Origin: a virus
Taxonomy: Duplodnaviria > Heunggongvirae > Uroviricota > Caudoviricetes
IMG/VR virus record: IMGVR_UViG_2541047938_000006
Length of the DNA stretch: 64,000 nucleotides
Direction: 5' to 3' (one strand)
The position numbers are program-made. Position 1 is the first letter of the stretch, and each line of letters opens with the position of its first letter. This document shows positions 42,001-48,000 of the stretch, one piece after another.

Positions 42001-45000
42001 AAGGGGTTATTAAGAAGGTTGTTCCGGAATGAGTGGGGCTTCTGTTTTTGCTCCGGCTGACTGAGTGGCGCTGATTTTCTCAGCGGCCCTTTTGTCAATC
42101 TGTCTGCGCCAGAAGTCGCGTACTGCCCTGTATCCACCTGAAAGCAGATACAACACACAGACCACCGTACAGAAGTACAGCATTAACTGGTTGATGAATG
42201 TCATGGTTTATTACCGTTACTGTTGACAATGAGAATTGTTTTCATTTAGAAATGATTGATGTCGAAAGCATCCTTTCGTTAGATTCTCCATTGGGATTAC
42301 CTCCGCCAGTCTCCATTCCTGTTGCTGGCGGTTTTTTTTCGTCTGTTATGCTGCTACGGCATTCACACCAACAGTAAGACTTTCAATCAGCACAGGGTAA
42401 GTTGCCGCATTTCCGGTAATATCCGTAATTGCCAGCGCGTTGGCCTCAAAGGCTGCATTCGTCCATCTGGTCAGCGTAAACGGTTTTCCTGCTGCATTAT
42501 CAAGCACCGGCGTGACGTTCAGCGAGCCACCACCCGGGAAGCGGAAAGTCAGCGTGTGCCAGTCGTGATCGAACGGACCATAACTACCAAGCCGCTGTGA
42601 TGTGGTGTTTGCATGATACATCACATTGATGTTTGTTTTATCAGTCTGCAGATAGAAGGCCGCAATATAACCCTCCTCTGATTCCGCTCCCGGCCATCCA
42701 CTACCGCGCCAGTAAATACCCGCAGAATATTGATTTGCAGAAGCATTGAGAGATACATCATCGGGGATTTTAAAGCGCAGCGTGATTTCACCGCCGTTAT
42801 CGAACAGCTCCTTCCCCTTACCGGCATCAATTGCGTGCGATACTTTCCAGGTCTTTTTCTGTGCAAGACCATTTTCTGGTTTTTCAAGACGAAGGGCTTT
42901 TTTACCTGAACCACTGTCACTGACCAGCGTGTTTTTGACATCTGTCAGCGTCCAGCCCTGCGAAGCCAGAGCGGCATTTTCCGCATTCACATCATAAGCC
43001 AGCACTGACTGTATCTTTGTCGGGACAACGGCTTCAGGCTGAGTATCGCCACTCTCCTGTGCTGGTTGCGATACGCCTCCGCCTGAAGAAACCGCGGCTT
43101 TTGTCACTTTCCCGGAAACAAAATCTGCCACTCTGCCCACATGCAGAAGAATGGCTGTTGCCAGACGGTCGGAAATAATTCCGCGACGCGCCCATGAACC
43201 AAAGTGGGTTTTACGATCGGATGTTGTCCAGCTCTTCGCATCCGTTCGTCCACCGGAACCATAATACCCGATAGCCGGAATATCCGGGTCTTCTGACGGT
43301 TCATTGGTCCCGACTTTCTGACCATTGTCATCCATCATAAACGGCACAAAGAAGATATTTTTACCGGCTTTGGTTTTGTATGCGCCATAGACGGCATCGT
43401 ATTGCGCTGAATACGTCTCCTTCCAGTAGTACGTCGTGTCACTGCGTATTTTCATGAAAGGAGATCACTCAATAACTTCCATCGAGATCGGGTAATAACA
43501 TTTGAACAGATCGCTGAATAACATCGATGGAGATCACTTTTGACTCATTTTGTTATTCAGTGATCTCCATCAATGTTATTGGAACTTCACAGGTGTGTTG
43601 ATCTGTATCTTTTGCCATTCCGGTAAAGGATACCTATGCCAACAGTTCCAATTTCTATGAGAAAACTTAAAGAAATTCTTAGGCTTAAATACGGTGTTGG
43701 ACTCAGCCATCGACAAATTGGTCGTAGTCTTGCAATCTCCCCTTCCGTTGTATCCAGATATGCTAATCGGGCGGCTCAACTTGGCATAAAGCAGTGGCCC
43801 TTACCTACAGGATGGGATGATACAAAACTAAAACATGCGTTCCTTCAGACCCAGGTTAAGATGAAGAAGCACTCTCTGCCTGACTGGGCTACAGTACACC
43901 GGGAACTGCGTAATAAATGCGTGACGCTGCAGCTACTCTGGGAAGAATACTGTGAGCGTAATCCAGGCGGTTTTTACAGCTATAACCATTACTGCCGGAT
44001 GTACCGTGAATGGCTCAAAACCACTTCACCATCAATGCGTCAGGTACATAAAGCTGGCGAAAAACTTTTCGTTGATTACTGTGGACCTACCGTTGGCGTT
44101 ACCGACCCTGAGACCGGAGAAATAAGAACTGCTCAGGTCATCGTAGCTGTTCTCGGGGCATCAAGTTACACATGGGCAGAGGCCACCTGGTCTCAGCAGC
44201 TTGAAGACTGGGTGATGAGTCATGTTCGCTGCTTCCAGTGGTTGGGTGGCGTTCCTGAACTTGTTGTTCCGGACAATCTGAAAAGCGCCACATCCAGGGC
44301 ATGTAAGTATGATCCTGACGTTAACCCTACCTACCAGCAGATGCTTGAGCATTATAATGTCGCAGTTTTGCCTGCGCGGCCACGTAAACCGAAAGATAAA
44401 GCCAAAGCTGAAGTTGGCGTTCAGGTTGTTGAACGCTGGATCATGGCCCGAATCAGGCATGAGATCTTCTACAGCCTTGCATCGCTTAATCAGCGCATTC
44501 GGGAGTTGCTGGAAAGACTGAATAACAAAATAATGCAGAAGTTGGGTTATTCACGTGCAGAACTCTTCATCCAGCTTGATAAACCCGCACTGAAGCCTCT
44601 TCCTGAAGCCAGTTACAGTTACACCCTGGTGAAGAAAGTCAGAGTTCATGCCGATTACCACGTGGAAATCGACAAACATTACTACTCGGTTCCATGTTCG
44701 CTGTTAGGCCAGCAACTGGAAGCATGGATCTCCGGAGAACTGGTAAGACTCTTCAATCAGGGGCAGGAGGTTGCTGTGCACCCGCGCAAGCGTACTTATG
44801 GCTACAGTACCCGCAACGAGCACATGCCTGAAGCTCATCGACAGCATGCCACCTGGACGCCAGAGCGTCTTCTGGAATGGGCGGGGCACATAGGCAGTGA
44901 AACTCATAGTTATGTGCTTCATATACTGAACTCTCGTCCACATCCGGAACAAAGCTATCGCTTCTGCCTTGGACTCCTGAACCTTCATAAAAAATACAGT

Positions 45001-48000
45001 AAAGCCAGACTTAATGCAGCATGTGCAAGAGCTCTGAAAACAAAGGTATGGCGTCTGTCAGGTATTAAATCGATCCTGGAAAAAGGTCTGGATAAACAAC
45101 CTGTTCAGGATCCAAAACCAGATCTGTTATCCACGATGGAACACGAAAACGTACGCGGCAGTGAGTATTACCACTGATACGGGATCCAATGATGAATCAT
45201 CTTTACGAACAACTGACCGCACTTAAACTCACCGGCTTCCGTGATGCGCTTAAAAAGCAACTTGCTCAGCCGGGCACATACCAGGAGCTGGGCTTCGAAG
45301 AACGCCTGTCATTACTGACAGCAGAAGAACTAACCTGCCGTGAAAACAGGAAGGCAGAGCGTCTGATCAAACATGCACGGTTCAGACTTAATGCTGAGTT
45401 ATCAAAGCTGGATTATCGTAACAATAGAGGGCTGGACAGGGCCCTCATCCGTTCACTCAGTCAGGGAAACTGGTTAACCCTGAAACAAAATATTTTACTG
45501 ACCGGGGCCACCGGCAGCGGTAAAACGTTCCTGGCATGTGCACTTGGTCATAATGCCTGCCGACAGGGATACAAGGTCTACTATTATCGCCTTAAAGCGC
45601 TGATGGAACAGTGCTATCAGGGGCATGCTGATGGAAGATACAGCAAACTTTTGACCAGGCTGAATAATAGCGATCTGCTGCTTCTGGATGACTGGGGGCT
45701 GGAACCTCTCTCATCAGAACAGCGTAGCGACCTGCTGGAAATAGTGGATCTGATGTACCAACGAGGCTCAATCATCGTAGTGAGCCAGTTGCCGGTGGAA
45801 AACTGGTACAAAATGATCGGAGACTCCACACATGCGGATGCCATCCTAGATCGACTGGTTCATGGCAGTATCAAGATCGAACTTAAAGGAGAATCAATGC
45901 GGAAAATACAATCTCCGTTGACCGAAGGAGATCAGTGAAGGTAATTTAAAAACGGTTCTGTGAAAGTGACACGAACCGATCTCCATCGATGTTACTCACC
46001 GATCTCCTTCACGGTAATACGCAGTGTCACCACAAATCCAGGGCACCAGAGAAGGAGAAGCACCAGCGCACTGACCGGATACTCCCGCCAGGTCAGAACG
46101 GTATTTTTCCACCATGGCATCAAACATGGCGGGCTGACTGGCGTACGCTCCCTGTTTTAAATCAAACTCGCCCTGCATCCAGACAACACAAAGTAGTATG
46201 TTTTTGGGGTTTGCCTTCAGCGCGGCCTGAGTGCGTGTCAGCAGGTCTTTATACAACGGCTTATCAACGCCCCATCGTTCAGATTTATCCGACGCTCCTG
46301 AACTTTCACTGAACGTTCCGTCAGCACCGGCTGTAAACGCAGAGCCACCACGACAGCACGGCACTAACAAAATACCCGCATTTTCCGGCATAAAGGGCAA
46401 CAGCTTTTTGGCAATATGCAATCCCTGTCCGACACACCCATACTGCTCTGCGCTGGCTTTCGGATGAGAAAAACGGCTCAAATCCTGCACATCATGCAGG
46501 CAGTGGTCCGCCGGAATGATGTCGTTATATGCACAGGCCGCACCACCCGGTGTCACCGTACTGCGACGCGCCAGCTGTTTAATACGCGGGTCCGGACGGT
46601 CATATGTCTCCGGCAGCGGCAGGCCTTCACCATACGCCATGCCGTTTGACTGTCCGGCCAGCGCAATGACAAAGTAATATTCTGGTTCAACAACAACAGT
46701 CCGGGTACCATCTCCCCCCGGTGAAACTACCGGAGAGGTCATATCCCCTTCAGCGACTATAGCCTGGATAAATTCAGCACCATAACCCGCGTTTGAGATA
46801 ATCGGACTACCATAGGGTTGCCAGCCTTCCTTCAGTTTTTGCGTCAGTTTTCCTGCGAGGTCTGACGGCGATGATGCCCTGACCACGTCATAGTGTTTAA
46901 ATGCCATTATTCCTCCCGGCAGGGATAGTGTATGCAATCAAGATAAGGTGCGGGCTGACGTCAGTCATGGACAAGGGTTCAGAAACAGGAGGATGACTAC
47001 AGCCCGCAATACGAAAAAGACCATACAGTTGCGCAGAGTGATTACTATCAGGTATTATTCGCCAGCTGAAAATTGATCACTTCACGTTTTGTTGTTTATT
47101 CCTTGCCACCCGCGCTTCCCGGCGCGGGCTTTTTTTTATCCAACAAGAAAGCCCCTCCGGAGAGGGGCTGGAGAGTAGCGCTATGTACCGTTCATGCATG
47201 GTGCAGGGTGCCTCCCGGTGAGTTCAGTATCAGCACCTGAACCCGCACCAGAAAGGATAAGGGGTGTGACCAAACACCTGTCGCTGATATGCCCCTCCGC
47301 ACAGGGGGATTCACCATGCCATATTTTTTTAACAAACTTCCCGCTGGCCAGACAATAATCGCCAGCCTGAATTGTGAGTAACGTGGCATTTTACGGGAAA
47401 ACTGTTTTCTGCAGTAAAAAGGCCCGCCGGAGCGAGCCTGGAAGGATAGCGGTCATGTGATGCCGGTTTCCCGGTAACTCAGCATCGGTATCTGAGTCAA
47501 CGTTTTCTCTACTGGGTCATTTCCGATACGTTCCGCCTTCCGGCAGACTTTCATCACGTCAGAAAATATAGCACCCTGAGTAACAGGACAGTACTCAGAA
47601 TTCAGGAAACTGTGACACATCCTGCACAGAAAAGCCCCTCCGGAGAGGGGCTGAAGTATAGCCTAATTTCTGTCTGTCGCATGGTGCCAGGTGCCTCCCG
47701 GTAAATTCAGCCTGGCTACTGAATTTGCATGTTCGCTGGATCATACACTTTGCCAGATGCCCCGCCGCTGAGGGGGATTCACCACGCGATGCAATTTTTA
47801 ACAAATTCTCCGGCAGCCAGACAATCATCAAGCTGTGGAATTGTGAGGTATTTAAAAATTTCGCAGCCTCTTGCCACCCGCTTTTCACAAAAATCGTATG
47901 TAGAAGGCCGCAGCGTAACTATCACTGATGAATTCAGGACACCCAGAGGCTACGGCTCAGTTTGGATTGTGGCGGCCGGAATCGAACCAGCTCCCATCGG

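Follow-up and report, generated by a model that had tools for sequence, protein, structure and literature searches.

The NanS-p esterases of Shiga toxin (Stx) phages have been described as proteins with a three-domain architecture (PMC10462455). The catalytic residues of the Escherichia coli enzyme NanS are Ser19 and His301 (PMC9063846), and the motif that includes the histidine constitutes block IV of the SGNH pattern found in NanS and NanS-p (PMC10462455). Insertion sequence (IS) elements, namely IS629/IS1203 and ISEc8, have been found within the nanS-p genes of many Stx2a phages (PMC10462455; PMC4587872). Here we describe the interruption of a NanS-p-type gene by ISEc12, an element of the IS21 family, in a 64,000-nucleotide stretch of the virus record IMGVR_UViG_2541047938_000006 (Caudoviricetes), hereafter called the window. 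The best explanation for this locus, to which we assign a probability of approximately 0.93 as a whole, is that a single recent ISEc12 transposition split and inactivated the esterase gene of a prophage.

Specifically, one recent transposition event, involving the IstA transposase and the IstB helper ATPase, would have placed a full-length ISEc12 in the gene for a NanS-p-type sialate O-acetylesterase, at codons 293-295, and duplicated 7 bp of the target, GTGTCAC. The gene is now split into a region coding for a 303-amino-acid (aa) N-terminal product, which includes DUF1737 and approximately two-thirds of the SGNH esterase domain with the nucleophile Ser87, and a C-terminal remainder with His372 and the DUF6645 jelly-roll. 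This remainder has only a fortuitous IS-derived ATG, before which no ribosome-binding site is seen. With its catalytic residues located on separate pieces, the protein would have lost esterase activity, and late transcription from downstream of a Q-like gene would presumably continue through to the genes for holin, lysozyme and Rz.

An earlier sequence-only reading of the window (42346-46937) had placed an IS21-family istAB element, with GTGTCAC at both ends, between an N-terminal fragment bearing the SGNH motif and a C-terminal fragment. It regarded the two frames as consistent with a single ancestral ORF for a nanS-p-like esterase that the insertion inactivates. Each of these proposals is borne out by the comparisons that follow, whereas its further suggestion concerning the lysis genes fares less well (see below).

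Both fragments lie on the minus strand. The 5' fragment (45996-46907, 303 aa) consists of 295 native residues followed by eight that are encoded by the IS (AYYREGDR) and a stop codon (45996-45998), which is located eight codons into the right end of the IS. This fragment holds DUF1737 (residues 3-53) and the SGNH esterase domain up to residue 295, including the block I motif GQSN (residues 85-88) with Ser87. The same frame extends upstream to a TTG, and counted from there the ORF (45996-46937) encodes 313 aa. The real start of the esterase gene is likely the ATG at 46907, which has GGAGG located 5 nt upstream. The 3' fragment (42346-43455) is a 369-aa ORF in which native codons 296-657 occupy positions 42346-43435, and it carries the rest of the esterase domain, His372 and DUF6645. 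Its start is an in-frame ATG (43453-43455) within the left end of the IS, such that the residues MKIR and S precede the native sequence in a hybrid ORF. No Shine-Dalgarno sequence is seen before this ATG in the upstream sequence ...GATCTCCTTTC. Gene callers annotate the 369-aa ORF as a separate 'DUF6645' protein.

The distance between the starts of the two GTGTCAC copies, 2588 nt (2 mod 3), equals the frame offset between the two fragment ORFs. When positions 43443-46030 (the IS plus one repeat) are removed, a single open minus-strand frame of 657 codons results, running from the ATG at 46907. The joined ORF aligns without gaps from end to end with intact homologues. It is identical at 654 of 657 residues to the E. 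coli G1/2 protein WP_016237845.1, annotated as a 'SASA family carbohydrate esterase', and at 657 of 657 residues to the product of a gene in Escherichia phage PhiR12_3 (PV340552.1), from which it differs by four synonymous nucleotides and no indels. In addition, an 800-bp sequence spanning the joined junction is contiguous in 20 complete E. coli genomes at 99.8-99.9% identity, always within this esterase gene. The PHROG profile phrog_143 is covered from 1 to 296 by the N-terminal fragment and from 288 to 631 by the C-terminal fragment. These alignments show that the fragments once formed a single ORF, of which each is one half. The outcome that the sequence-only reading had named as refuting it, flanking ORFs with no continuous homologue in common, was not observed. 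In its present form, the locus has no uninterrupted frame that spans both catalytic residues, and His372 is encoded 2.6 kb away.

The restored 657-aa protein matches the Pfam models DUF1737 (residues 3-53), SASA (83-274) and DUF6645 (508-618). Residues 71-391 align to E. coli NanS/YjhS (3PT5, E 3e-118), and residues 438-653 match the lectin-like C-terminal domain for which a NanS-p structure has been determined (6YP6, E 3e-43). The restored ORF therefore exhibits NanS-p's three domains, and in the window as it stands these domains are divided between two ORFs. Ser87 aligns to Ser19 of NanS, and His372, located in the block IV sequence RKTH, aligns to His301. The catalytic serine and histidine of the NanS type are both present, on different fragments. 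Because identity to the corresponding Stx-phage genes is only about 59% and the prophage carries no stx, 'nanS-p-like' is the accurate label for the restored protein. It reflects the NanS-p architecture and genomic position along with an activity that is predicted from sequence. The gene is found where NanS-p genes reside, in the late operon of a lambdoid prophage, with the Q/late-promoter region on one side and the holin gene on the other.

The inserted element (43443-46023, plus strand, 2581 bp) is identified by its identity to annotated copies as a complete ISEc12, oriented antisense to the late operon of the prophage. These copies match it at 100% identity across all 2581 bp, and the name is that given to them by NCBI PGAP, 'IS21-like element ISEc12 family'. 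The sequence between the two GTGTCAC copies starts with TGCGTATTTTCATGAAAGGAGATC and ends with GATCTCCTTCACGGTAATACGCA. The left end of the IS (43443-43535, 5'-TGCGTATT) has repeated GGAGATC-type motifs and was delimited by the inverted-repeat pairs I1, I2 and I6 and by end-to-end alignment, as was the right end (45957-46023, ...AATACGCA-3') by inverted repeats and end alignment. The two ends are imperfect inverted repeats that can be aligned over approximately 55 nt, with repeated GGAGATC motifs internal to each and the termini 5'-TG...CA-3', as in other members of the IS21 family. The genes also occur in the order of this family, with istA and its rve core followed consecutively on the plus strand by istB. 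The istA gene (43636-45177) encodes a 513-aa DDE transposase (Pfam rve, 2.7e-10; Mu-transpos_C_2, 2.6e-16), and its position within the IS is that of WP_001298859.1 in one of the sampled loci (L001). The istB gene (45192-45938) encodes a 248-aa AAA+ helper ATPase (Pfam IstB_IS21, PF01695, E 2.2e-67) when its start is assigned as PGAP does for WP_001016257.1, and 249 aa from an alternative ATG at 45189. ISEc12 is widespread. A match is present in 1909 of 5426 complete E. coli genomes, on chromosomes as well as plasmids, and in 1366 of them a single place covers at least 80% of the element. Genomes with any match have a median of three matching places.

GTGTCAC directly abuts both ends of the IS (left copy, 43436-43442; right copy, 46024-46030) and occurs as a single copy at the empty site. 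The heptamer is not rare in the window, with four occurrences on the plus strand versus approximately 3.9 expected (64000/4^7). The chance that it would abut both IS ends exactly is 4^-7, or about 6e-5. Target duplications in the IS21 family are 4-8 bp in length, and the direct repeat of 7 bp falls in this range. For comparison, we collected eight other ISEc12 insertions (L001-L006, L011 and L012). All eight are 2581 bp long with the same first and last bases and unrelated flanks, and seven are bordered by direct repeats (5, 5, 7, 5, 6, 6 and 5 bp). The exception, L003 (NZ_AP017620.1 4771623-4774323), lies between a fragment of an IS66 transposase gene and a fragment of a gene with a phosphoethanolamine-transferase domain, which suggests an IS-mediated rearrangement in that strain. 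The empty-site string GTAGTACGTCGTGTCACCACAAATCCAGG, which contains one GTGTCAC, is found verbatim in two further loci (L007 and L008). Because the ends of ISEc12 are identical in eight other insertions with unrelated flanks, GTGTCAC is a 7-bp target-site duplication that is located outside the terminal inverted repeat.

The native sequence just upstream of the insertion (CTCCTTCCAGTAGTACGTC, 43416-43442) resembles the right end of the IS (CTCCTTCACGGTAATACGCA, 46004-46030) at 15 of 20 positions with one gap, and in some cases BLAST matches to the filled junction ran 13-16 nt into the flank. A target-site preference was considered and rejected, as the flanks of L006, L011 and L012 are only loosely and gappily similar and no consensus emerges among the eight sites. 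The likeness of the flank to the IS right end is probably a coincidence.

The insertion is shared by a small number of assemblies. Exact-protein look-ups of both truncated products recovered the same junctions, at 100% DNA identity, in GCA_000461255.1 (scaffold KE702357.1), in GCA_002538945.1 and in contigs of SRR958752 and SRR3987722. An assembly artefact is excluded because these independent assemblies share the junctions. One additional locus, L017, was considered as the same insertion in a different phage background and was rejected, because it is 100% identical to the window and differs only in its gene calls. The filled junction is present in none of the 5426 complete E. coli genomes and was not found in the GTDB species representatives. 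Among complete genomes, SCU-104 and SW070917 come closest, with 99.9-100% identity to the window over neighbouring 18-kb stretches (100.0% over 18 kb on one side for SCU-104), yet both have the empty site. The presence of the empty site in near-identical relatives, together with the identity of the IS copy to widespread ISEc12, suggests that the insertion is a recent, lineage-specific event. Four Escherichia phage PhiR12 records (PV340549-PV340551 and PV340553) carry a 100% identical ISEc12 at another site, and therefore ISEc12 is carried in deposited phage genomes. A tail-fibre assembly gene is annotated under the match in two of the four, and PhiR12_3 of the same series has an intact esterase gene.

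Among the alternatives, the one that survives best concerns the consequences of the insertion for the lysis genes. The sequence-only reading had suggested altered late-operon read-through towards these genes. In the strongest form of this idea, late transcription would be stopped or much reduced before the holin, lysozyme and Rz genes, and the host would not be lysed. Such strong polarity would be favoured by the 2.6 kb of untranslated RNA, antisense to istAB, that now separates the premature stop codon from the lysis genes, and by several weak hairpin-plus-T sites on the late-transcribed strand of the IS. However, these minus-strand sites have stems of at most 6 bp, and the two that were folded have z-scores of only -1.5 and -2.1.

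Moreover, the organization of the operon appears to be built for read-through. Upstream of the esterase gene are ninB-ninE-rusA-ninH, the Q-like antiterminator gene and a 1.4-kb leader. The Q-like gene (48358-48984, minus strand) follows ninH and rusA and matches phrog_753, 'anti-termination protein Q-like' (E 3.5e-68). It has no Pfam match and is annotated as a 'hypothetical protein' in RefSeq relatives, and it looks like a poorly annotated Q family. The presumed late-promoter leader (47139-47817, minus strand) includes two tandem STnc100-type RNA elements (47139-47348 and 47624-47817; Rfam scores of 129.9 and 138.7 bits). It also includes three strong terminator hairpins (47150-47169, 47420-47439 and 47633-47652) with G+C-rich 8-bp stems and U runs, for which the predicted energies range from -15.6 to -17.3 kcal/mol and the z-scores from -3.3 to -4.0. 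Each STnc100-type element closes in the same 8-bp hairpin and U run, and the third strong terminator is located between the elements. This tandem stretch is probably a duplicated late-promoter leader/terminator region. No tRNA or stx genes are present between Q and the esterase gene, where only the STnc100-type elements were found. Because late transcription must pass the strong leader terminators, the late operon appears to be Q-antiterminated. The Q-modified RNA polymerase of lambdoid phages ignores both intrinsic and Rho-dependent terminators over many kb.

There is also a published precedent. In 13 O157:H7 Stx2a phages (PST1-1), IS629 splits the predicted protein encoded just downstream of stx2, and yet induction with ciprofloxacin gave phage DNA from which the genomes of these phages could be assembled (PMC4587872). 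Recovery of phage DNA despite IS629 in nanS-p argues against a block. Given Q-type antitermination, the lack of a strong minus-strand terminator in the IS and this precedent, the insertion is unlikely to be polar on the lysis genes, and late transcription should still reach holin, lysozyme and Rz. The proposal of altered read-through finds no supporting evidence here.

No observation speaks against the insertion as such, but several points weigh against its proposed consequences, lost enzyme activity and intact late transcription. Polarity could arise through Rho acting on the 2.6 kb of untranslated antisense-IS RNA, or through collision with istAB transcription. The antitermination activity of the Q-like protein is assumed from its PHROG annotation and gene position, and its family lacks a Pfam model. 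The prophage may be defective for other reasons, given a frame change in its tail-fibre gene at 28.70-28.73 kb, in which case any effect on lysis would be moot. Finally, the loss of enzyme activity rests on alignment.

With regard to the enzyme, the duplication spans codons 293-295 (G-D-T), which lie between Ser87 and His372. Because the IS cuts a single catalytic domain and leaves the nucleophile and the base on separate pieces, we strongly infer that esterase activity is lost. The rival possibility that enzyme function survives the split, because the fragments complement each other or because the IS is often excised precisely, has in its favour that both fragments are open and that the IS end supplies the C-terminal part with an in-frame ATG. 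It is nonetheless very improbable, since this ATG has no visible Shine-Dalgarno sequence and the break lies inside the one SGNH domain, between the catalytic residues. Precise excision is generally rare for DDE insertion sequences. Excision variants would be revealed by sequencing reads that contain the junction string lacking the IS, GTAGTACGTCGTGTCACCACAAATCC.

A more speculative idea is that the insertion did not simply knock out the gene but created a separation-of-function allele, as the 303-aa product retains the whole DUF1737 domain. In the phi24B homologue this domain has been identified as a capsid-decoration module that stays on the capsid after proteolytic processing (2026 preprint), and the prophage in the window shares with phi24B a major capsid protein of the N4-gp56 family. 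By analogy, phage heads might still be decorated in the absence of the esterase and carbohydrate-binding parts. We consider this to be doubtful, though less so than the rivals weighed here. If true, the allele would offer a natural experiment on the benefit that phage or lysogen draws from the enzyme part.

It is less probable still that no single insertion took place, and that the two fragments instead derive from paralogues in different prophages that were joined by recombination between ISEc12 copies or by repeat misassembly. E. coli genomes with ISEc12 often carry several copies, and the sampled copy L003 lacks a duplication and is bordered by a different gene on each side. However, the locus in the window has an exact 7-bp duplication, both halves match the one PhiR12_3 allele at all but four synonymous positions, both flanks run on into one collinear prophage, and identical junctions were assembled independently in several data sets. 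Least credible of all is that GTGTCAC forms the outermost part of the terminal inverted repeat, giving a longer element whose simple excision would not restore the gene. The heptamer is nearly palindromic and the flanks do lengthen the inverted repeat (pair I6, 43433-43458 versus 46008-46033, 81% complementary), but exact indexing, the eight other copies that end precisely at TGCGTATT...AATACGCA, the single GTGTCAC at the empty site and the gap-free ORF obtained by removing the IS with one copy led us to reject it and to regard the palindromic look and the I6 extension as incidental.

In the explanation we favour, the interrupted gene belongs to an stx-negative, 933W/phi24B-like, short-tailed lambdoid prophage in an E. 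coli chromosome. The N4-gp56-type capsid gene, the portal gene and the tail genes of this prophage resemble those found in the 933W/phi24B group, and it contains no tRNA genes. At its left end, the window consists of chromosomal E. coli sequence from the ynfE/ynfF region. Downstream of the esterase gene, on the same strand, are ORFs for DUF1378 (42010-42204), DUF826 (41694-42158), a class II holin (41402-41617), lysozyme (40864-41397) and Rz (39904-40371). A lipoprotein-like ORF embedded in Rz (39966-40151) is presumably Rz1, based on its sequence and position. The genes from DUF1378 to Rz (39904-42204) are all open and occur in the same order in L007 and L010. The tail-fibre gene (27616-29684, minus strand) shows a frame change near 28704-28731 relative to its 662-aa PhiR12_3 and 644-aa JNEC-KY173 homologues. 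This change lies in internally repetitive sequence. It may mark a frameshift pseudogene or stem from misassembly, and it bears on the viability of the prophage.

Other features of the window are located at a distance from the esterase locus. Rfam matches to C4 antisense RNA, isrK and the c4-a1b1 target are present at 51458-51656 (minus strand) beside an ORF6N/antirepressor-type gene. Beyond these RNAs, at approximately 51.7-52.35 kb, a RelE/ParE toxin-antitoxin pair is recognizable by homology to SCU-104. An Rfam match to sRNA-Xcc1 (69 bits, 4036-4124, plus strand) is situated on the chromosomal ynfE/ynfF side, outside the prophage.

The practical consequence is primarily one of annotation, and the finding matters little beyond this. 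The two 'genes' that code for a DUF1737/SASA protein and a DUF6645 protein are better treated in annotation as a single pseudogene that ISEc12 interrupts. Likewise, where growth on O-acetylated sialic acids is compared with the number of nanS-p copies, this prophage esterase should be counted as missing from the lysogen. In addition, the insertion could be used to mark the lineage of the few assemblies in which it occurs. The locus also adds an IS21-family case to the known IS3 and IS66 insertions, which fits with the esterase gene being dispensable for the phage.

Compared with known systems, the element itself shows no differences from ISEc12, with the same 2581 bp, istA and istB genes, termini and short target duplication, and only its site is particular. 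The restored protein shares its domains with NanS/YjhS (3PT5) and with the NanS-p proteins of Stx phages (933W L0105; phi24B vb_24B_21/gp84; 6YP6), and its gene occupies the same genomic position as those of 933W and phi24B. It differs in that its block IV is RKTH rather than RSSH or RASH, in its identity of only approximately 59% to the Stx-phage genes, and in that its gene is disrupted. As in the IS629/IS1203 and ISEc8 cases, the NanS-p-type gene that separates the Q/late-promoter region from the lysis cassette in a 933W-like prophage is divided by an IS, and two predicted proteins result. The published cases involve the IS3 or IS66 families in Stx2a phages, whereas an IS21-family element in a prophage without stx is responsible here. 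Furthermore, the commonest published IS-bearing allele ('sequence 16', CTR3) still encodes a 634-aa protein in which only the C-terminal end is changed, whereas ISEc12 in the window cuts within the catalytic domain. The interruption is an ordinary knockout of a kind already described for nanS-p, and it is set apart by the family of the IS, by a phage that lacks stx and by the location of the insertion in the catalytic domain.

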